DNA of 33,902 nucleotides from IMG/VR virus record IMGVR_UViG_2778261509_000015, one strand, 5' to 3'. The stretch comes from a virus. Its lineage: Duplodnaviria > Heunggongvirae > Uroviricota > Caudoviricetes. Positions within the stretch are counted from its first letter, which is position 1. Each line of letters opens with the position of its first letter. Positions 1 to 21,491 of the stretch are shown here, in pieces. A model generated the notes under the pieces. It saw only the letters and a list, made by a program, of their open reading frames with translations. It was not told where the DNA came from and did no database searches. Both the position numbers and the translations under genes were made by a program.

Positions 1-480
1 GGTGGTTTTGCCCTTAATGGTGATGTCTTTTTCCGTCACCCAGCCACCGTTACGCTGTATCTGAACCAGCAGGCGAACTTCCGACGGATTCCGGTCCCCT
101 TTTGAGGTGGTTTCCACCAGTGCCTGCACGCCGAAAGTAAAACGCAGACGGTCAATGTTTGCCGACGTGATGGTCCGGGTGATCGGCGTGTCATATTTCA
201 CTTCCGTACCCAGCACCGTCTCGGAGCCGGAGGATTCAAACCCCTCAGGCGGTATCTGCTCCTGCTCACCGGCACGGAACACCACCGTGACACCGGAGAT
301 GTTGGTATTCCCCTCACTGTCCAGCACCGGCGTGCTGTTCAGCAGCACGCTTTTTAATCCATCCACCGGACCTTCAATCGGCCCTTCGCTGATGGCATCA
401 ATCACACTCAGCAACTGCGTGGACTTCAGATTGTCCTTCGCTTCGCGCGGGGTATGCCCCTTACTGCTGCCTTTACCCAT
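1..480 (-). CDS. J: Tail tip / host specificity protein J, N-terminal 160 codons only (gene continues past window start)
   Basis: ATG at 480..478 (minus); translation MGKGSSKGHTPREAKDNLKSTQLLSVIDAISEGPIEGP matches lambda J N-terminus as recalled; follows gene I. Confidence 0.85.
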   Translation of the reverse strand, partial: MGKGSSKGHTPREAKDNLKSTQLLSVIDAISEGPIEGPVDGLKSVLLNSTPVLDSEGNTNISGVTVVFRAGEQEQIPPEGFESSGSETVLGTEVKYDTPITRTITSANIDRLRFTFGVQALVETTSKGDRNPSEVRLLVQIQRNGGWVTEKDITIKGKTT

Positions 481-2855: not shown

Positions 2856-5800
2856 CGTCCACCTCCGGATAACAGCCCACCATCACGGGACTGCTGTTGC
2901 ATAAAGTCAGCTGCTGCTTTTTTCCCGAGGTCATACACCACCTTCAGTGCAGCCGGGCCTATCTGCCCGTTCGTGCCGTCATTATTAATCTCAATGTGGT
3001 ACTGCGGGGCAAACATCGCCATACCCGCACCACTGGTCGCTGCCACAACCCCCAGTTTGCCGTCAGCACCACGACGCAGTGGCAGAATGGCTTCAGGCCC
3101 GGCCTCGCCCATCACACCAGCGCCTTTTGCAAAAGCAAAAAACGTCGGACGGTTAACCACTGTGCCACTGTAGCGACTCAAATCAGCAGACTGATAAACA
3201 CCACCACAGGCATTAAAGGAAAGACTGCCGAGAACAGAACCCAGCCCCAGTGCACTACCAACGCCCTTTACTGCCTGCATCATCGCCATCTGTGCCATAA
3301 TTTTTGCCATATCCGACAACAGGGAAGAGGTGAAGGATTTAAAATTCAGCTTTCCGGTGGTACAGAACGTCGCCAGCCCGTTGCCCATGCTACTGAACGC
3401 GGTATTAAACAACTGCTCAGCGGTACCCGCCGCATTATCCGCATTCTCTGTAAAACTCTGAAAAGCCCGCATGGCACCCTTTTTCCAGTCTGCCTGCATC
3501 AGCTCCTGTTCCTGCCAGTAACGTCTGTTTTCGTTCAGTTGCCGGTTAAGACTGTCTGTCAGCGTCTGCTCAGCATTCCGGTATTCATCTGTGCCGTATG
3601 TTCCTTTCTGCTTACTGTCACGCTCCAGCTGTTCCCGCTGCTGCTGATATTTTTGTTGCAGACTGAACTGTGACTGGTATCGCTGACGCTGTTTATCCCC
3701 CATCCCTGTCGTGGCGATATCCAGGTCATGTTGCTGACGCAGAGCCCGTTCCTCTTCCGCCAGCTGGCTGGCAAGCTGAATGGATTTTTTCTTCAAATCA
3801 TTCAGCGCCGTCTGCTTCTGCAGCTCCTGCTGTTTTGCATCCAGCAGCGTCAGTGCCTGAACCAGCTCATCCTTATGCGCCAGCATGCTTTTTTCATCTG
3901 CCGTCAGCTTTTTACCGGCTAAGTCACTGATACGCTGCTGCAGGGCCAGAAGCTGTTTATGTGCTTCAGTCATCCTTTCAGTGACAATGCCTGCTGACTG
4001 TCTGGCGGCGGCAATCTGCCCCTCCACCTGCGCCTGTTGCTGGCTGTACTGCAGTAATAACCGGGTGGCCTCATCATTGCGGGTGGCAGGCGTTTTTTTC
4101 TTAATGGCTTTTTCGTAACGTTCATTTTCACGTTGTATCGCTGCATCCCTGACCGCCTGATCGGCGTACTGCATGGCATTAATACGCGCAAGTTCACGCT
4201 GATGTCGTGCTGCTTCCGTTTCATTCATCCGGTTCAGCGCAGCATTTTCAGCATTACGGCGTTTCTGTTGCTCCTGATAATTCCGCTCTGCCTGCTCTTT
4301 TGCATCCTGCAAATCCTGCTGGCGCTTTCGCTCTTTCAGCGCATCCAGTTGTTGCTGATCGTATTCCACCGTGGTGGACGCGTTCGTCCACGGAAATCTC
4401 TTCGCACGCTGAATTTTTTCCTGCAGCGCCGAAATCTGTTCATCCAGCGAGTCTTCACGACCAATATTCATGGCCGCATCCCAGAACTGCCTCCACCAGT
4501 CAGACAATGTCTGAAGCGTACTGCCCAGCGCATTGAGGTTATTATCAATATCCGCAGTACGCCGACCGGTTTCCTCTGCCAGTGCAGACATGGCTATCCG
4601 TGCAGCATCACTGGACCGTCCCTGATCCCCAAGGACACGTATCTGCTCAAGCTGAGTGGCAGTAAGAAAATGCAGCTCATTGTCCAGAGCCTTCGCGGCA
4701 TTTACAGGATCATCCTTCAGCCGCTTAAACTGATTTATGGTATCGCTGACCGACTGGCCAACCGATCGCTCCATCTGTGCGGCAGCTCTCGCCACCATAC
4801 CGATATCGTTTCCACGAAATGCACCACTCCCCACCACCTGAGCCAGCGCACCGGCTGCAGCATGTTGCGTGATACCATTCCCGGAAATAGCACGACTGAG
4901 CGTCCACAGCTGCCCGGCAGTGACTCCGGCATAATGCCCCGTCAGCGACAACTGCCGGTTAAATTCTTCCCCCTCCTTCTGACCGTCATACCAGGCTTTA
5001 CCAAGACCATAGACGGCCGCGGCAATACCGCCAATAACCCCGCCCAGCATCATGCCTTTCGGTGACATCAGTGTGTCTATCCATCCGGCACGGTTAGCCA
5101 GCGTTATCCCGGATCCCCTCAGCGCACCTAAATTGCCGCGGGCCAGTTCACCTATCAGAACGCCTATCTCCTGGCGGGCCGCTGCACTTTTCAGACCCAG
5201 CGAATGCGTGGCTTTTCCTGCCTGCTCCATTTTGCGGATATACACTTCTGCAGCACTGCTTACCCCCAGCTGGGCTGCCTTAGCACGAAGCAACTCAGAA
5301 GATGAAAGATTCTGGCGGGTTGCCTGCTCTTTAAGCTGACGGATAAACGCCACTTTCTGTCGGGTAGCCTCTTCCTCAGCCTGTGTAAGAACACGGGTTT
5401 TCGCCGTAACCTCAGAAATCAGCGCCAGATAATCCTGCTGACCAATCCCGCCACTGTTTCTGGCCTGTCGGATCTGCTGCTGAATACGCTGTAATTCCTG
5501 CAGCCCCGCACTGGCCTGTTTCACACTGTCAATCTGACGATAAAACGCAGCAGCCGCTTTATCCTGAGCCTCCGCCAGAGCCATGGCCTGCGCCTGTTCC
5601 TCGCGCATTTTCTGGCTCAGTGCCTCCATGCGCTGGCGGTTTTTTTCCACCTCGCGGGCCATGCGTTCATGAGCCTGTGTGTTCTTCTCCACCGTCTGCG
5701 CATGGACGGATGCGGCTGTTGCAGACGAAGAAGCCGCCTGCGTTGTCTGCCGGGCGGCCTGAGTCTGACGCTCCATAAAACGCTGCATACGGGCAGAAGA

Positions 5801-14900: not shown

Positions 14901-15428
14901 CTAGAGACTCTCTCCTTCCTCATCAGGAATTAATTCAGCAGCACAAGCCTCGTAGGATTTTTCCTGAAGAGTGTATCGCAGGTCATCAATGGCCTGCTGT
15001 ACAACGCCGACGGCCTGAGGAGTCAGGGCGCAATCGCGCTCAAGAACATCCGGAATTGTCTCCAGAACCTGGACGACAGCCTTTCTCATGGACGAATAGA
15101 CGATGACTACTTCATCAACGGGGATGAGTTTTCGCTGCTCCTTTTCCAGCTTGATCCTTTCATTTTCAGACTGGTACCAGTCCTTTCTCTCTTTCGGCTC
15201 CATACGGGATGGATCATGAACAGAGTCTGCTGCCTCATGCTTCACACTAAACAGGGCAGGCCCGACATGCTGCAGGGCGTAAACGGGGTTCCCCCTGACA
15301 GTCGCTGCCACAGGAGTGTTGGCCGCGAGGAGCCGTTTTTTTACTGTGTCCCGGTGAAGCCCAAAGGCCTCGGCGATTTTAAAAACACTCCAGTAATAAG
15401 CATCACCGATCCCGCTCACATTTGACAT
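14901..15428 (-). CDS. Terminase small subunit (Nu1-like, HTH)
   Basis: About 175 aa directly upstream of terminase large; ATG at 15428 with GGAG 8 nt upstream; DNA-binding N-terminus. Confidence 0.7.
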   Translation of the reverse strand: MSNVSGIGDAYYWSVFKIAEAFGLHRDTVKKRLLAANTPVAATVRGNPVYALQHVGPALFSVKHEAADSVHDPSRMEPKERKDWYQSENERIKLEKEQRKLIPVDEVVIVYSSMRKAVVQVLETIPDVLERDCALTPQAVGVVQQAIDDLRYTLQEKSYEACAAELIPDEEGESL

Positions 15429-15594
15429 AAGCAACTCCATCTGGCAGGTGAAAATCGGGTTTATTTATATATTTCAATTAATTGCAAACTAGTCTAATGA
15501 CAGGGAGAAAAAAATATTGTACAGGCGAAAAGAGAAATAACTTTTAATTATCAATAAATTACCGAACATGCTGCCGCCGCCATGGAAATGCAAA

Positions 15595-15630
15595 AACTAG
15601 CCTTTTTCCGCGACGCTCCCGCCCCGTGGC
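15595..15630. other. Candidate cos site (cosN-like), lambda-type variant
   Basis: Minus-strand ACGGGGCGGGAGCGTCGCGG resembles lambda cos GGGCGGCGACCTCGCGG as recalled; lies about 190 bp upstream of terminase small, as in lambda. Confidence 0.4.
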
Positions 15631-15870
15631 AAGGCCACCCCACCGGGAGGACCCATGAAAAATGAGAGCAATTATCATTTATGCTCAATTAAACATCAGC
15701 ATTATCGCAGCCCCTCACTGAAGGACTGCTGTAATGCTGATTGTTCAACATCAAAAAACCCAATCTGTTGCAAGTTATAAAAGCAACAAACGACATTGCG
15801 CGTTAAGATTTTCTTAATATTTAAGAAATATATTTTTTAATCTCATTTATTTTTGCAAAAGACTTTTCAT

Positions 15871-16446
15871 ATGCAGCGTCGAGAAATAAAGAAAATTACT
15901 TATTTAATCACTTTGATTTTAACTACTCTTTTGTTTGTTTATTTTTTAAGAACACCCACCACAATCAATATGAAACAGGCGCATAAAATAAATCAACAAC
16001 ACCAGACAATTTTCCTTATCCGTCACGGTGAACGATGTGACAGAAGCAAAAATGCATGTCTCTCAAGCAATAAAGGAATTACCGTCAATGGTGCCATTAA
16101 AGCTCGTGATTATGGAAAAATATTTAGCAATACTTTCCCGTCATTCAGCCTTTACTCCACGGATACCATACGGACAATGCAGACAGCCTGTTTTTTCTCT
16201 GGAGGAAAAGCAGCCTCCCGGATACCGTTGGCTGCAACATGCGGACTTGATGCTGCAAAGAACATACTCAAATTGTCATCCGATAATAAAACTACCGTTA
16301 TATTCACCCATAATCATTGCCTGACACAAATAGCAAAAAAAATGAAATGGTGGAAGTTAAAGCCAGAATATCTTGAAACACTGGTTCTTCATATCGAAAA
16401 CAATCGTCTCATTCTTGACGGAAAACTGACTCACGATAAAGCGTAA
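15871..16446 (+). CDS. Ais/PmrG-like histidine phosphatase (putative LPS core heptose(II)-phosphate phosphatase), N-terminal membrane anchor
   Basis: LIRHGERCDRS catalytic RHG motif, FTHNHCL motif, overall resemblance to E. coli Ais as recalled; ATG at 15871 (ORF track start 15853 is TTG); AT-rich flanks; opposite strand to late genes. Confidence 0.7.
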   Translation: MQRREIKKITYLITLILTTLLFVYFLRTPTTINMKQAHKINQQHQTIFLIRHGERCDRSKNACLSSNKGITVNGAIKARDYGKIFSNTFPSFSLYSTDTIRTMQTACFFSGGKAASRIPLAATCGLDAAKNILKLSSDNKTTVIFTHNHCLTQIAKKMKWWKLKPEYLETLVLHIENNRLILDGKLTHDKA

Positions 16447-16517
16447 CAATCATTCAAAGAGTCAACATATTTTCTGCATTAACCCCGAACAGTTCCTCTG
16501 CCGGGGTTTTGTATTAG

Positions 16518-16895
16518 TTATCGCCTCAACTGAAAATGCGGTCCGTCTTTCAGGCTAGTCCAGTCCCCGCCCCATTCGATGGCAGTTCCCAGCTCTGCGG
16601 CAGCCTGCTTAAATGCCTGCGCGATTTTCTCGTACAGAGGCCAGTCCCATGACACCTGGCTGCCAACCCAGGCCACAACATCCACCGCATCACCGGTCAG
16701 GTGGCGGCTGTTCATGGTCTGGCTCTTGCCTTCTGCAACCAGCTGTTTCTGGCGTTCTTTCGTGCGCAGGCCTTCCGTAATACCGAAATCAACCTCCGAC
16801 AGTTCAAGGGCGCGGCGAACTACAGCAACCAGCTGTGGTTTGACGCCTTCCAGATTTTTCTCGCTCCGGCGGCTGAATCTGAATTTACCCGACAT
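16518..16895 (-). CDS. Endolysin, peptidase M15-type (L-alanyl-D-glutamate / D-Ala-D-Ala peptidase fold)
   Basis: SRHLTGDAVDV and PHFQL zinc-ligand motifs; ATG at 16895 with GAGGTGA upstream (ORF track start 16901 is GTG); follows holin genes. Confidence 0.7.
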   Translation of the reverse strand: MSGKFRFSRRSEKNLEGVKPQLVAVVRRALELSEVDFGITEGLRTKERQKQLVAEGKSQTMNSRHLTGDAVDVVAWVGSQVSWDWPLYEKIAQAFKQAAAELGTAIEWGGDWTSLKDGPHFQLRR

Positions 16896-16897
16896 AT

Positions 16898-17173
16898 TCA
16901 CCTCAACAATGGAAAGATTCTTGTGACGTTCCCGCGTGCGCGTATCACCAGCACGCAGAACAGCAGATTAAAAAACACATCCAGCCAGCCCGTTGCTAAC
17001 GGGCGACCACACAGATAGCTGAGAGGCGCAAAGGCATACAGCAGCATCAGCAGCCAGGCCAGCCATGACATCAGCGGTTTATGTCTGGAATCACGGCGAC
17101 GATAAAAAAAGAGCGTCAGCACGATAACCGTGCATAACGCCACATTCAGCAATCCGGGAAGGTTACTTAACAT
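16898..17173 (-). CDS. Small 3-TM membrane protein in lysis cassette (second holin or antiholin candidate)
   Basis: ATG at 17173 with GGAGGAGG 5 nt upstream; 91 aa with three hydrophobic helices; overlaps holin stop and endolysin start. Confidence 0.45.
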   Translation of the reverse strand: MLSNLPGLLNVALCTVIVLTLFFYRRRDSRHKPLMSWLAWLLMLLYAFAPLSYLCGRPLATGWLDVFFNLLFCVLVIRARGNVTRIFPLLR

Positions 17174-17555
17174 TACCGCCTCCTCCGCCTCGCAAGCGGG
17201 AGAACAGTCCTGACACCAGCGATGCAATATCCTGCTGGTGGATGAACGACAGAATCTTCACCGACACCACAGACACCAGCACTGCACACAGCGCGTCGAC
17301 AGATTTACTGTGAAGCCCCAGTTTTTCGACCAGATAAGACGCCATCACATCCGCCCCCAGTACGCCGATAATAAACGACACCAGAAAATGCGCCGCCACC
17401 CGCCAGACAGAAAGCGCCTGCGGCATCGTTGCCACAAACAACGCCCCCGCGAACGCACCAAACACAATCCCGAAATCCGTTCCGGTGAACAGCCCGAATA
17501 CCGTCGCCCCTCCGAGCGCAGCCGCCGTGCCGGAACCGGATAAGGGTTCAGACAT
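17163..17555 (-). CDS. Putative holin (about 130 aa, 3-4 TM, Gly-rich C-terminal tail)
   Basis: ATG at 17555 with AGGAG 9 nt upstream; hydrophobic helices; first gene after tR'-like terminator and before endolysin. Confidence 0.5.
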   Translation of the reverse strand: MSEPLSGSGTAAALGGATVFGLFTGTDFGIVFGAFAGALFVATMPQALSVWRVAAHFLVSFIIGVLGADVMASYLVEKLGLHSKSVDALCAVLVSVVSVKILSFIHQQDIASLVSGLFSRLRGGGGGNVK

Positions 17556-17570
17556 ACTTTTTTCTCCTGT

Positions 17571-17596
17571 AAATAAAAAAGGGCCACCAGCGGCCC
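17571..17596 (-). terminator. Rho-independent terminator (tR'-like) just upstream of holin
   Basis: Minus strand GGGCCGCTGGTGGCCC followed by TTTTTTATTT, 15 nt before holin RBS. Confidence 0.6.
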
Positions 17597-17723
17597 GTAA
17601 AAAACAACACCCCGTCAAAGGCACCCACAGATACCTTTTGTGTGGTGTATTCAGATTTGACATACGCTGAGCAGGGCGAAGAAATGAAAAAGGCCCGCAG
17701 TAGCGAGCCATGAAGAAACTGAA

Positions 17724-17749
17724 TAAAAAAAAACCGCCTGGTACGGCGG
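17724..17749 (-). terminator. Second rho-independent terminator between tRNA-Gly and holin
   Basis: Minus strand CCGCCGTACCAGGCGG followed by TTTTTTTTT. Confidence 0.55.
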
Positions 17750-18013
17750 TTAAGATGAATTTCCAGGTTTTGCTTAATACGTGATTAATCTCAACGTTTT
17801 TTATAGATGTTAACAACATCGGAATGATGCATCACCGGCCCTGTCAGGAAATACAAAATCTCCACCGATAATGCACCATTACGCTGTTGTAAAAAAACAG
17901 CACTGGACTGTAACCGATATCACGTATTACAGAACAGGATGTGGATAAAGATTCAGGAAAACATCCCACATATAATATGTCAGTGCCCAAAACAACTTGG
18001 TATCGTCTACTGC

Positions 18014-18088
<75 letters not shown>

Positions 18089-18505
18089 ATACTATGCGGT
18101 CTTCAGTAATCACACGAATTACCGTGAAAGCCAGCACTGGTCTTTCCGACGGTAGTAACACCCCTGTGAACACCAAAATAACCGTCTTCCAGACCGACGA
18201 GAATACTAACGACATTTTTTCAGATATCAAAAATATATTTTGTTTTTAGTTTTTAATATATGTATGCATCTGTATCAGAAATATACAATTTATATCATTA
18301 CTAAATTAAAAACATTTCTCTGACGTCTGATTAAAACGTTCCTGTTCCAGTTCCGCGCCAATCACACATGGTCATTGCGTTTTACCAGTCCATCGCCACT
18401 ATCAGGCTGACCAGGGGACGCCCCACCCGAACTGCTGAGAATGCCAGGCACACAAAGAATAATGCCCGCCAAAGCGTTCCTGCATACAATGACTGCAAAA
18501 TTCAG

Positions 18506-19249
18506 TTATTCTTGAGCGGAGCCAGAACTCATCTCACTGAATGCAGCCATCCTGTAACCTTCCGGGGTGACCCCAAAATAACGCCTGAATACACTGATAA
18601 AATAAGATGTATTATTATAGCCACACTGCACAGCGATTCTGTTGATGGCACAGCTATATTGATGCAACAGCATTGCTGCCATTCTCATTCTCTCCGTAAG
18701 CAACAACTCACTGAAACATGTGCCTTCTTCTTTCAGTCTTTTTTTTAACAAACTTTCACTCATACATAACCGTGATGACACATCTCGCAGAGTCCAGTTT
18801 GCTGCAATGTCTGTATGAAACAACGCACCAAGCCTGCCGCTGATAGTACTGATACACGCGGTCATAAACGACGAAAACATTTTATCTGATGAAAAAAACG
18901 CCAGACACGAAAAGGAAAGCATTTCCGCTAAATTGTCCGTATGAATCTTTTCCTCATAAAGATAATCAATCAGGATGCCCATCAATTCTGGCCTGGGAAA
19001 ACTCATGCAAAGATATCGTGGCATTTTCCGGACTAAAACAACATCCTGTTTTACCCCACTACGCAACAGGTAACGGCTAATTGTCGATTCACTGAGACTT
19101 ATACGCCGAAAACATTCAGAAAAGGGCAATAACGGTCCAGCCCCTCCCCTGACAAGAAGTGCACTACCACTTTCCAGAGAGAGTACTTTTCCTTCGAAGA
19201 GCACAACAAACGGGGAATGAACAAAAATAACAGAACAGGCCTCATTCAT
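18506..19249 (-). CDS. AraC/XylS-family transcriptional regulator (AppY/YdeO/GadX-like)
   Basis: C-terminal AraC HTH (IAVQCGYNNTSYFISVFRRYFGVTPEGYR); N-terminus MNEACSVIF resembles AppY; ATG at 19249 (ORF track start 19357 is GTG); AT-rich flanks. Confidence 0.8.
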   Translation of the reverse strand: MNEACSVIFVHSPFVVLFEGKVLSLESGSALLVRGGAGPLLPFSECFRRISLSESTISRYLLRSGVKQDVVLVRKMPRYLCMSFPRPELMGILIDYLYEEKIHTDNLAEMLSFSCLAFFSSDKMFSSFMTACISTISGRLGALFHTDIAANWTLRDVSSRLCMSESLLKKRLKEEGTCFSELLLTERMRMAAMLLHQYSCAINRIAVQCGYNNTSYFISVFRRYFGVTPEGYRMAAFSEMSSGSAQE

Positions 19250-19372
19250 ATCAATATCCCTGACATTACTGGTCGCAAGATAAGTATATATCACTTTACA
19301 AAAATGCAAGCCGTGAGCCCCGAATTCACGACCACCAGCGTGTTTACTGTACTGCACCAGGTTTACAGGTAC

Positions 19373-19395
19373 AAAAAAACCCGCTCGACGGCGGG
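19373..19395 (-). terminator. Hairpin CCCGC-N6-GCGGG with T7 run on minus strand, upstream of AraC gene
   Basis: Read directly: aaaaaaacccgctcgacggcgggttt. Confidence 0.5.
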
Positions 19396-19822
19396 TTTAA
19401 GCTGTGTGGCGAAGTAACCACCCTTAACAGCATAACCAATTTTTTACGTACGTAAACCTCTAAACAATATTTGTGAGAATGATATCGAGTGTTCAAAACA
19501 CCACCACAATCACATAAGGAAAAATAAACAAATAATCATTAAATAATTTCTGGCGTTATTTTTAGTGCATTTAAATTAAATAGATGAATTATAAAACGCT
19601 TATAAATAACAACCTTTAATATGATTTTGCTACCAAATTTATTTTCTTTCAGGTAATAGTCATGTACAGCATGCAATAGAAAAAGTTCAGATGAAAATAG
19701 AGATCTAGCTCACAATTTAAATAAGAATCTAAAACTTACATCTTGAATTAATCACATTGATTAGATGAATATTTGTCGCGCAGGGCATCATTTTTTAATA
19801 AATTTCAAAAAAAGGTCTCACG

Positions 19823-20920
19823 ATGAAAAAATTAACAGTGGCAATTTCTGCTGTAGCTGCATCAGTACTGTTGGCGATGTCTGCTCAGGCAGCAGAGATT
19901 TATAATAAAGACAGTAACAAACTCGATCTGTACGGAAAAGTTAATGCTAAGCACTACTTCTCCTCTAACGAGGCAGATGATGGTGACACTACTTATGTTC
20001 GTCTGGGCTTCAAAGGCGAAACCCAAATCAACGATCAGCTGACTGGTTTCGGTCAGTGGGAATACGAATTCAAAGGCAACCGTGCTGAATCTCAGGGTTC
20101 TTCCAAAGATAAAACCCGTCTTGCGTTCGCTGGCCTGAAATTCGGTGACTACGGCTCCATCGATTATGGTCGTAACTACGGTGTAGCATACGATATCGGT
20201 GCGTGGACTGACGTTCTGCCAGAATTCGGTGGTGATACCTGGACTCAAACCGACGTATTCATGACTCAGCGTGCAACTGGTGTTGCAACTTACCGTAATA
20301 ACGACTTCTTCGGTCTGGTTGATGGCCTGAACTTTGCAGCTCAGTACCAGGGCAAAAACGATCGTAGCGATTTCGAGAACTACACCGAAGGTAACGGTGA
20401 TGGCTTCGGTTTCTCTGCTACCTATGAATACGAAGGATTCGGTATCGGTGCAACTTATGCGAAATCTGATCGTACCGACACTCAAGTTTATGCAGGGAAA
20501 GTTCTTCCTGAAGTATTTGCTTCCGGTAAAAATGCAGAAGTTTGGGCCGCAGGTCTAAAATATGACGCTAACAACATTTACCTAGCCACTACCTATTCTG
20601 AAACCCAGAATATGACTGTATTTGCTGATTACTTCGTTGCTAATAAAGCTCAAAACTTCGAAGCTGTTGCACAATATCAGTTCGATTTCGGTCTGCGTCC
20701 GTCCGTTGCTTACCTGCAATCTAAAGGTAAGGATCTTGGAGTATGGGGCGATCAGGACTTAGTCAAATATGTTGATGTAGGTGCAACCTATTACTTCAAC
20801 AAAAATATGTCTACTTTCGTTGATTACAAAATCAACCTGCTTGACAAAAATGACTTCACTAAAACACTCGGTGTAAGCACTGACAACATCGTTGCTGCAG
20901 GATTGGTTTACCAGTTCTAA
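19823..20920 (+). CDS. Outer membrane general porin (OmpC/OmpF/NmpC/Lc family)
   Basis: Signal peptide [24 protein letters not shown]-terminal [18 protein letters not shown]-terminal Phe (VYQF), 365 aa; opposite strand to late genes as nmpC in DLP12. Confidence 0.9.
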
Positions 20921-21107: not shown

Positions 21108-21491
21108 TCAATTAGACTTCGTAACAACGACATCCATCTCTAACCGGATATCTAATGCCATTAACATCCCTTCAATTATTCCCTCAGCCTTCTGTAACTT
21201 TTTCCCGATATAACCATCAGAGCAACGATGCTTACTTGCCAGTGACATGAATGTCATACCACCTACATAATAATCCACTAATAAATCGTGCAAATCGCTG
21301 TTGTTCTTTTTCAGACGGGCCATGCACCCGCAAATGATCATCGCGTCATCGTCACAACATTGCGGACGGGGTTTTACTTTTGAAGGAAGTAATCCCTTAA
21401 AACCGGCAGCAATGGACGACCAGGTCACATCCTCATGATTATTAGCCGCCCATGCCCCCCAACGTTCAAGAACCATTTGAATATCACGCAT
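21108..21491 (-). CDS. Late gene antiterminator Q (phage 82 / QuuD-like)
   Basis: ATG at 21491 with GGAGG 7 nt upstream gives [26 protein letters not shown]..., matching DLP12 QuuD as recalled; Cys-rich zinc motif. Confidence 0.85.

Follow-up and report, generated by a model that had tools for sequence, protein, structure and literature searches.

A phiP27-type lysis cassette with an Ais/PmrG-like gene in place of the usual small lipoprotein gene

The lysis cassette described here lies in a stretch of viral DNA of 33,902 nucleotides (Caudoviricetes; IMG/VR record IMGVR_UViG_2778261509_000015), the whole of which we call the window. It consists of two genes for holin-family membrane proteins (hol8 and hol3_7) and an endolysin gene, and it is met from the other side by a converging gene of the Ais/PmrG type. 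Matches in Pfam and PHROG located the three cassette genes at 16518..17555 on the minus strand, where a first-pass annotation made from the sequence alone had drawn them. That annotation had also remarked on the lack of recognizable spanins, and the outer-membrane step of lysis is therefore our main concern. The locus is made up as follows.

17163..17555, minus strand: hol8, 130 amino acids (aa), first gene of the cassette; PF16931 Phage_holin_8 (E 4.5e-21), phrog_198 'holin' (E 1.6e-41), RefSeq 'putative holin'
16898..17173, minus strand: hol3_7, 91 aa, three transmembrane segments; PF05449 Phage_holin_3_7 (E 1.1e-21), phrog_217 'holin' (E 2.8e-38)
16518..16901, minus strand: endolysin, M15 (LAS-type) L-alanyl-D-glutamate endopeptidase; PF13539 Peptidase_M15_4 (E 3.6e-12), phrog_465 'endolysin' (E 9.1e-75)
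16447..16517: 71-bp spacer between the stop codons of the endolysin gene and the ais-like gene, with one hairpin (approximately 16475..16513) and then UUUUGUAUU on the plus strand
15853..16446 (RefSeq start 15871), plus strand: Ais/PmrG-like gene for a predicted periplasmic lipopolysaccharide (LPS) core heptose(II)-phosphate phosphatase; NF011945 score 207.9 bits (cutoff 142)
15680..16521, plus strand: inserted or replacing moron module of approximately 840 bp that holds the ais-like gene, with flanks common to locus L015

The three genes of the cassette

The matches to PF16931, PF05449 and PF13539 all exceed the gathering scores, and all three proteins fall in the PHROG category 'lysis'. These family assignments are direct observations; the mechanistic steps considered further below draw on the known functions of the families. 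At the DNA level the cassette is 91.9% identical over its whole length to that of phage phiP27 (NC_003356, L28-L30) and 89.9% identical to that of phiSTEC1575. We defined the related set as the 80 contigs in IMG/VR whose encoded endolysin is 91-99% identical, and in these loci the first three genes of the cassette recur in the same order, with overlapping ends and with 85-100% protein identity. The hol8 and hol3_7 genes were found upstream of the endolysin gene in all of the 80 contigs that reach that far. The ratio of nonsynonymous to synonymous polymorphism (pN/pS) is 0.24 for hol8 (62 unique alleles), 0.32 for hol3_7 and 0.10 for the endolysin.

The ATG of hol8 is preceded by a GGAG 5 nt upstream, and an extended version of the gene (a 218-aa open reading frame (ORF) from 17819) was rejected because it reads through terminator hairpins. 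Our own Kyte-Doolittle scan detected three clear transmembrane segments in each of the two membrane proteins and, in hol8, one further weak and Gly/Ala-rich segment at the N-terminus, which makes the earlier counts of four and three segments reasonable; the two N-terminal segments of hol8 are both rich in Gly and Ala. The hol3_7 gene overlaps hol8 by 11 nt, and its product carries a basic loop (YRRRDSRHK) and a basic C-terminal tail. By our own reading of the positive-inside rule, the predicted topology of this protein is N-out/C-in, as in class-I holins. By this topology the 91-aa protein would be the more typical holin of the two, and the 130-aa hol8 protein might act as a co-holin or regulate timing. 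Locus L015 has, at 2942..3091, an N-terminal piece of a lambda-type Rz gene (MSRLTAIISALVICIIVCL...) fused to the 3' part of the hol8 gene, which suggests recombination between two different lysis cassettes.

Neither membrane protein gene has an alternative in-frame start near its ATG. Antiholins, which delay the triggering of holins, are known either as second products of a holin gene that has two starts or as regulators encoded separately, for example P1 LydB, T4 RI and P2 LysA. The first-pass annotation had considered that the 91-aa protein might turn out to be a known antiholin. No database source gives that label to it or to hol8; all names are of the 'holin family' kind, and the 105 homologues of hol3_7 are all either 'phage holin family protein' or unnamed. 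Literature searches returned nothing functional on Phage_holin_8 or Phage_holin_3_7, and a search of genome contigs with the 91-aa protein returned one fragmentary locus only. The suggestion that this protein substitutes for a spanin in some unconventional way has not stood up, since it belongs to a holin family, has the predicted class-I topology, and is paired with hol8 in every cassette of the phiP27-type family, including the 74 that also bear a lipoprotein gene.

The endolysin gene may start at GTG 16901 (127 aa) or at ATG 16895 (16518..16895, 125 aa), and the latter, which is the choice made in RefSeq, is likely the true start. Residues 5-125 of the protein match solved L-Ala-D-Glu endopeptidases (ChiX 5opz, E 7.8e-42; 8q2g, E 4.6e-43; T5 Lys 2mxz, E 1e-23). 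In the 127-aa numbering, it contains S65-R-H67-L-T-G-D-A-V-D74 (SxHxxGxAxD) and D119-G-P-H122 (DxxH), which we take to be the zinc-binding and catalytic motifs of the M15/VanY family, and as a member of that family it would cleave the L-Ala-D-Glu bond of peptidoglycan. The protein is soluble, has a mass of 14 kDa and carries no signal or signal-arrest-release sequence. Its identification as an M15-family peptidase is thus upheld by PF13539, phrog_465 and the ChiX and T5 Lys matches. Such a peptidase is not unusual as an endolysin: T5 Lys, ChiX and the endolysins of P2-like prophages are of the same family. A DNA match to the gene is present in 826 of 5426 complete E. coli genomes (approximately 15%). 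Among 59 alleles, synonymous diversity dips at codons 81-110 (16571..16661): each of the two blocks of 10 codons within 81-100 has 4 variants, compared with an average of approximately 8-9. This dip may reflect chance, codon bias or an element acting at the DNA or RNA level; a nested ORF is not the explanation.

The lipoprotein gene of related cassettes and its absence from the window

In 74 of the 80 related contigs, the endolysin gene is followed by a gene for a small lipoprotein (phrog_7528). The six contigs without it (L005-L010) are those closest to the window, and all of them have an Ais-like gene instead. The lipoprotein gene lies on the same strand as the endolysin gene and begins 45 bp after its stop codon in 45 loci. 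Examples are the following.

L012 3926..4081: phrog_7528 lipoprotein gene
L086 2796..2978, minus strand: phrog_7528 lipoprotein gene
L002 5614..5769: phrog_7528 lipoprotein gene

The precursor of 51-60 aa has a signal peptide (KWALVAILVPF(F/L)L(V/A)GC) that ends in the lipobox L-V/A-G-C, and the mature part comprises 30 residues (CVSLDKARQLFDTASQVCEIVDGVRQCLQN), contains three cysteines and is not proline-rich. The residue at position +2 is Val, which presumably directs the lipoprotein to the outer membrane under the Lol sorting rules. Its pN/pS of 0.31 indicates purifying selection close to that acting on hol8 and hol3_7. No Pfam or NCBIfam model covers the protein, phrog_7528 is labelled 'unknown function', and the annotations in E. 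coli, Salmonella, Citrobacter, Cronobacter and Yersinia read only 'hypothetical protein' or 'lipoprotein'. Downstream of the endolysin gene, no other lipoprotein of the o-spanin type was found in the 80 related loci except in L078. The phrog_7528 lipoprotein may be a stand-alone lysis factor of the outer membrane.

In the spanin catalogue of Kongari et al. (SpaninDB; PMC6139136), this lipoprotein is entered as the phiP27 o-spanin, and its periplasmic span is the shortest in the data set. The published 'i-spanin' ORF of phiP27 (TTG start, 64 aa; L002 5256..5450, equal to NC_003356 20348..20542) occurs in only 2 of approximately 85 loci. Opposite it, on the other strand, runs a better-conserved 90-aa ORF (phrog_36812), of which four other loci have homologues at 45% identity. 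The 64-aa ORF probably does not represent a real gene, in which case the 'o-spanin' of phiP27 has no partner. Another possible partner is a 57-aa ORF with a C-terminal transmembrane segment that lies directly upstream of the lipoprotein gene and ends 4 nt before it. This ORF is present in 20 loci (for example, L003 5507..5680) and absent from most; it could be an unconventional inner-membrane partner of the lipoprotein.

In the window, the place after the endolysin gene is taken by the ais-like gene, which is antisense to late transcription and occupies the position that bor has in lambda. The first-pass annotation had put the converging gene 70 bp away, very near the 71 bp measured here. The protein scores below the cutoff of the PmrG equivalog model and has an N-terminal signal or anchor. 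The hairpin in the spacer (-16.1 kcal/mol, z -3.0, plus strand) and the UUUUGUAUU that follows look like a terminator of the ais-like gene. Comparisons by blastn with L015, L012 and L002 showed that homology to lipoprotein-bearing relatives stops at 16522, at the endolysin stop codon. L015 is 94.6% identical to the window up to 16522 and 98.9% identical from 15679 on into the cos/terminase region. Between these shared flanks, L015 holds 1.55 kb with the lipoprotein gene and three other ORFs, and the window holds the 840-bp ais module. Since L015 shares both flanks of the window and yet carries the lipoprotein segment between them, the alignments indicate that the lipoprotein gene was replaced by the ais-like moron in the lineage of the window.

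The junction between the endolysin gene and the ais module was found in 28 of the 5426 complete E. coli genomes. The module itself occurs in 29, in 28 of which it is joined directly to the endolysin gene. Nearly all of these 29 genomes (27) are from pigs, mostly from enterotoxigenic E. coli (ETEC) and edema-disease strains. The packaging modules linked to the junction are of at least three kinds, and strain A10, from a wild bird, has a copy of the module at 11% divergence with the same junction and a different terminase. Its presence in 28 genomes and at least three packaging backgrounds shows that the junction is neither an assembly artefact nor a one-off deletion. The window, strain A10 and the viral loci L005-L010 all have the junction without the lipoprotein gene. 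No deposited phage genome was found to contain the window junction, and no literature was found on a phage-borne PmrG-like gene. The placement of such a gene after lysis genes is typical for morons of this kind: phage GER2 has an ais-like gene after Rz, and L078 (3900..5239) has, in order, the M15 gene, a lambda-type Rz gene (155 aa) with embedded Rz1, a converging ais-like gene (61% identity) and a 5'-truncated lipoprotein gene. L078 looks like a case of one outer-membrane system swapped for another.

The two membrane protein genes also occur in other surroundings. In LT-II prophages and a Cronobacter prophage (L090-L094), the hol8 and hol3_7 pair is combined with a GH108/PG_binding_3 endolysin, right after which come LT-II toxin genes or a DUF6645 gene, and no lipobox ORF was found within 3 kb. 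The pair is a mobile two-gene unit.

Spanins were sought with our own six-frame scan, which examines every start codon for a signal peptide plus lipobox, and with a separate scan for hydrophobic segments. The lipobox scan recovered its positive controls, namely the lipoproteins of phiP27 and phiSTEC1575-Stx2k and the P2-type LysC of an O103 prophage. The searches extended to the tail end of the prophage in E. coli RM10740, part of whose chromosome is 99.9% identical to the window. No credible lipobox ORF for an o-spanin was found in any frame of the cassette, the 33.9-kb window or the tail end of the prophage in RM10740, and hence none with a C-terminal transmembrane segment, as in a unimolecular spanin of the T1 gp11 type. 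No type-II membrane protein that might serve as an i-spanin was found in a real-gene frame of the window or of the rest of the prophage. With lambda Rz and Rz1 (sequences entered by hand) or the phiP27 lipoprotein as query, tblastn gave no match in the window, and the phrog_7528 lipoprotein was likewise absent from L001 and L085. The real membrane proteins of the window are only hol8, hol3_7, the Ais-like protein and the porin described below. The lipobox and transmembrane scans and tblastn thus bear out the earlier statement that there are no separate or embedded spanin genes. Approximately 13% of phages of Gram-negative hosts lack a recognizable spanin (PMC6139136).

Several short ORFs were examined and rejected. 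The endolysin gene, singled out in the first-pass annotation as a place to look for an embedded spanin, contains a +1 ORF (16550..16693, 47 aa, GTG start) with the motif 'LAARC', in which Arg at -1 rules out a lipobox, and it lacks a proper hydrophobic region (h-region). This ORF is truncated in 5 of 59 alleles, and 96 of the 104 variants that are synonymous in the endolysin alter its protein and 4 create stops, which indicates no coding constraint. Other nested ORFs, at 16712..16807 (cationic), at 16968..17066 in hol3_7, and at 17173..17289 and 17345..17587 in hol8, have no signal peptide, varying starts and no ribosome-binding site. An alternative-frame ORF in the J gene (36..194, minus strand, 52 aa) has a signal peptide of plausible appearance and an 'LSAC' lipobox. 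No Shine-Dalgarno sequence precedes it, and it is embedded in a conserved gene at a distance of 16 kb from the cassette; we attribute it to chance. In the 412-bp gap at 15441..15852 there is nothing but GC-rich, cos-like sequence, and the ORFs there have no ribosome-binding site. The short cationic ORFs at 16712..16807 and, in the cos-like region, at 15559..15678 are unconstrained and lack ribosome-binding sites; neither was compared by homology with phiKT gp28.

Late-region setting and the outer-membrane step of lysis

The window is most of an apparently intact lambdoid prophage, integrated at thrW (tRNA-Thr) next to proA. In the annotation of RM10740, the prophage begins with the integrase, yfd-type early genes, the repressor, replication genes and Q. 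After Q come a moron block (porin, AraC-family regulator and tRNA-Gly), the lysis genes, the Ais-like gene on the opposite strand, DUF1441, the large terminase, portal, head and tail genes to J. Nearly all structural and regulatory genes of the prophage are intact by RefSeq annotation. The features that set the cassette in the late region are listed below.

21108..21491, minus strand: Q-family antiterminator gene, marking where the late region starts (annotated in RefSeq at the RM10740 locus, which is 99.9% identical)
19823..20920, plus strand: OmpC-like porin gene, between Q and the cassette
18506..19357, minus strand: AraC-family regulator gene, between Q and the cassette
18014..18088: tRNA-Gly(TCC), between Q and the cassette
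17581..17751, minus strand: three tandem terminator-like hairpins just upstream of hol8 (17751-17732, 17709-17692 and 17596-17581; terminator scan)
14901..15440, minus strand: DUF1441 gene in the position of a small terminase; it is the next late gene past the cassette, and the large terminase follows it (RefSeq)

These features confirm a late-operon position for the cassette, downstream of Q and the terminators and upstream of the packaging genes. Three hairpins before hol8 are as expected for a Q-antiterminated late operon, and the position of DUF1441 and the large terminase directly next leaves no other room for lysis genes. The moron block at 18014..20920 occupies the toxin-gene site of Stx phages. 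The tail end of the prophage lies outside the window; in RM10740 it comprises J, the tail fibre and tail-fibre assembly genes and then a restriction-modification system, a pair of genes for a cytosine methyltransferase and a type II restriction endonuclease (L085 7889..10565).

We consider it fairly probable that the locus is a phiP27-type cassette of a lambdoid prophage in which the usual lipoprotein gene has been replaced by an Ais/PmrG-like moron, and that no dedicated function for disrupting the outer membrane is encoded. The first-pass annotation had left three options open, a missing spanin function, supply in trans, or substitution by the 91-aa protein. Most likely the spanin function is simply missing, the option best supported by the replacement of the lipoprotein gene of the relatives. 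Lysis might then proceed as follows. Transcription antiterminated by Q would pass the three terminators into the cassette, and one or both membrane proteins would accumulate in the inner membrane, trigger and form holes that pass the folded endolysin; since this enzyme is soluble and signal-less, at 14 kDa, at least one of the two would have to form large holes. The released endopeptidase would cut the L-Ala-D-Glu bond of the stem peptides of peptidoglycan. The last step would be passive rupture of the unsupported outer membrane, or rupture by spanins from co-resident prophages. Passive rupture should work well under shear, at low levels of divalent cations or in bile, and poorly under other conditions, and the predicted phenotype is that of a spanin defect, with spherical cells in still culture supplemented with Mg2+.

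Several points weigh against this reading. The phrog_7528 lipoprotein is only a candidate for a role in lysis; it has no conserved inner-membrane partner and a mature part of just 30 residues that is not proline-rich, and its loss may cost nothing. Persistence of the junction in at least three packaging backgrounds and at 11% divergence suggests that phages manage without the lipoprotein, as does the occurrence of the hol8 and hol3_7 pair next to LT-II toxin genes where a lipoprotein is lacking; a lysis defect becomes a less secure prediction accordingly. A non-canonical disruptor, such as a disruptin-like peptide or an activity of a holin-family protein, may exist. Our lipobox and transmembrane scans are home-made heuristics, distinct from SignalP, LipoP or TMHMM. 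Finally, since no deposited phage genome carries the junction, the variant is no more than presumptively viable as a phage.

The first of these points can be taken further, to a phiP27-type family that is spanin-independent as a whole, in which the holin pair and the endopeptidase suffice or one of them destabilizes the outer membrane and the lipoprotein is an accessory or an unrelated moron. We regard this as possible but doubtful. It agrees with the lack of a conserved inner-membrane partner (the published phiP27 'i-spanin' being present in 2 of approximately 85 loci), with the finding of no other o-spanin-type lipoprotein in the 80 loci apart from L078, and with the recurrence and persistence of ais-linked, LT-II-linked and Cronobacter variants that lack the lipoprotein. 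Against it, the lipoprotein gene sits 45 bp from the endolysin gene, on the same strand, in most loci and is under purifying selection. The combination of Rz/Rz1 with a 5'-truncated lipoprotein gene in L078 fits functional redundancy of the two, although it is a single case, and we know of no holin that disrupts the outer membrane. Supply in trans, through SOS co-induction of several lambdoid prophages whose spanins or phrog_7528 lipoproteins complete lysis, appears unlikely. The hosts have many lambdoid prophages; a query with the cassette gives matches at 5 sites in RM10740 and at up to 10-11 sites in a single genome elsewhere, and spanins of unrelated phages are interchangeable in the lambda complementation platform (PMC6139136). 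Yet it needs co-induction and would fail after a move to a new host, and the fact that the junction has passed into different phage backbones speaks against reliance on one particular helper.

A spanin or disruptin-like gene that is non-canonical, very small, nested or provided with an unusual lipobox, and so escaped detection, is very improbable. There are precedents in LambdaSo of Shewanella, whose 'missing' spanins were later found as extensively nested Rz/Rz1 ORFs (10.1101/2024.01.23.576932), and in phiKT, which uses a 56-aa cationic peptide, the disruptin gp28, in place of a spanin (10.1101/515445). The window does contain short ORFs (16550..16693, 16712..16807, 15559..15678 and, in J, 36..194), but none combines a ribosome-binding site with a signal peptide and lipobox, the nested ones vary freely in protein and are interrupted in some alleles, and the controls of the scan worked. 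Equally hard to credit is compensation by the Ais-like phosphatase, which by removing the heptose(II) phosphate in the lysogen would reduce cation cross-bridging and let the outer membrane burst once the peptidoglycan is gone. Core phosphates of LPS stabilize the outer membrane through cation bridges, and loss of the heptose II phosphate alone causes only mild outer-membrane defects, as in waaY mutants. The score as an LPS core heptose(II)-phosphate phosphatase, the N-terminal signal or anchor, the joining of the module to the endolysin gene in 28 of 29 genomes and the lipoprotein-less junction of the window, A10 and L005-L010 are consistent with such a role. A single ancestral recombination can account for this association, however, and ais-like genes coexist with Rz/Rz1 in L078 and GER2. 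The gene is also antisense to the late operon and is more simply seen as a lysogenic-conversion moron (receptor or LPS modification, or metal or polymyxin-related resistance).

Significance and comparison with known systems

The reading of a cassette whose lipoprotein gene has given way to a moron makes the locus, taken by itself, a routine lysis cassette with a gene swap. The three-gene cassette of the phiP27 type was already known, common and catalogued. Specific to the present case is that the absence of a spanin can be traced to a swap, in a persisting and recombining lineage, of the only outer-membrane candidate of the family for a moron that modifies LPS. The window represents a natural spanin-less variant of the cassette carried by Stx2e and Stx2k phages, and the same holin pair, with another endolysin, occurs in LT-II toxin phages of pig and human E. 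coli, in which the release of toxin requires lysis by the phage. Should the outer-membrane step be impaired or depend on conditions (Mg2+, bile or shear), the release of phage and toxin from such lysogens would be so as well. The comparison also exposes a weak point of the spanin catalogue: the 'two-component spanin' of phiP27 relies on an i-spanin ORF that is not conserved, which leaves the widespread small lipoprotein as the only candidate of the family for the outer-membrane step. Because the lineage of the window and its lipoprotein-bearing relatives differ by one module, they offer a ready-made comparison for the function of the lipoprotein.

The more interesting question lies outside the window, in the solitary phrog_7528 lipoprotein as a possible new outer-membrane disruptor and in its possible dispensability. 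The phiP27-type cassette may have no true spanin at all, the lipoprotein being a new single-component disruptor that works without an inner-membrane partner and is functionally nearer to the colicin-release (lysis) lipoproteins than to Rz1. It would be dispensable, given that the phages of the window type and the LT-II phages swapped it for conversion genes and still circulate. In its strongest form, this idea has the LPS phosphatase pre-weaken the outer membrane and take over the task. We offer it as a speculation that is rather unlikely to hold.

Compared with known systems, the endolysin of the window is a close relative of ChiX of Serratia marcescens and T5 Lys and shares their zinc-binding motifs. 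ChiX, which belongs to ChiWXYZ, acts in protein secretion and has the spanin-like ChiY and ChiZ at its side; the enzyme of the window sits instead in a prophage late operon without spanin genes. P2-like prophages of E. coli have a 79%-identical M15 endolysin gene beside a holin-family gene, but there DUF2570 (LysB) and an Rz1-like LysC come right after the endolysin. P2 itself has a holin Y with three transmembrane segments and a timing protein LysA with four, a possible analogy for the pair of 91-aa and 130-aa proteins. Phage phiKT resembles the window as an E. coli phage with a holin, an endolysin and no recognizable spanin, as do other spanin-less phages. It differs in having a dedicated cationic peptide for the outer-membrane step; nothing comparable was found in the window, where the absence can be traced to gene replacement.

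The arrangement in lambda, with S, R, Rz/Rz1 and bor, is similar in its Q-dependent operon, holin, endolysin and converging conversion gene before cos and terminase. Unlike lambda, the window has two unrelated holin families, a peptidase in place of a transglycosylase, no Rz/Rz1, and an LPS phosphatase where lambda has Bor. The LT-II prophages of type II ETEC (Rac-SA53 and relatives) share with the window hol8 and hol3_7 (78% and 68% identity), a conversion or virulence gene right after the endolysin gene, and the lack of any lipoprotein or spanin ORF nearby, but their endolysin is a GH108 muramidase with PG_binding_3 and the downstream genes encode LT-II toxin subunits. Closest are phiP27 (Stx2e) and phiSTEC1575 (Stx2k), which have the same three genes, in the same order and with the same overlaps, at the same site between Q, with its toxin or moron genes, and the terminase. 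They depart from the window in what lies downstream, where they carry the phrog_7528 lipoprotein gene at approximately 0.5-0.6 kb and the window carries the ais-like module.

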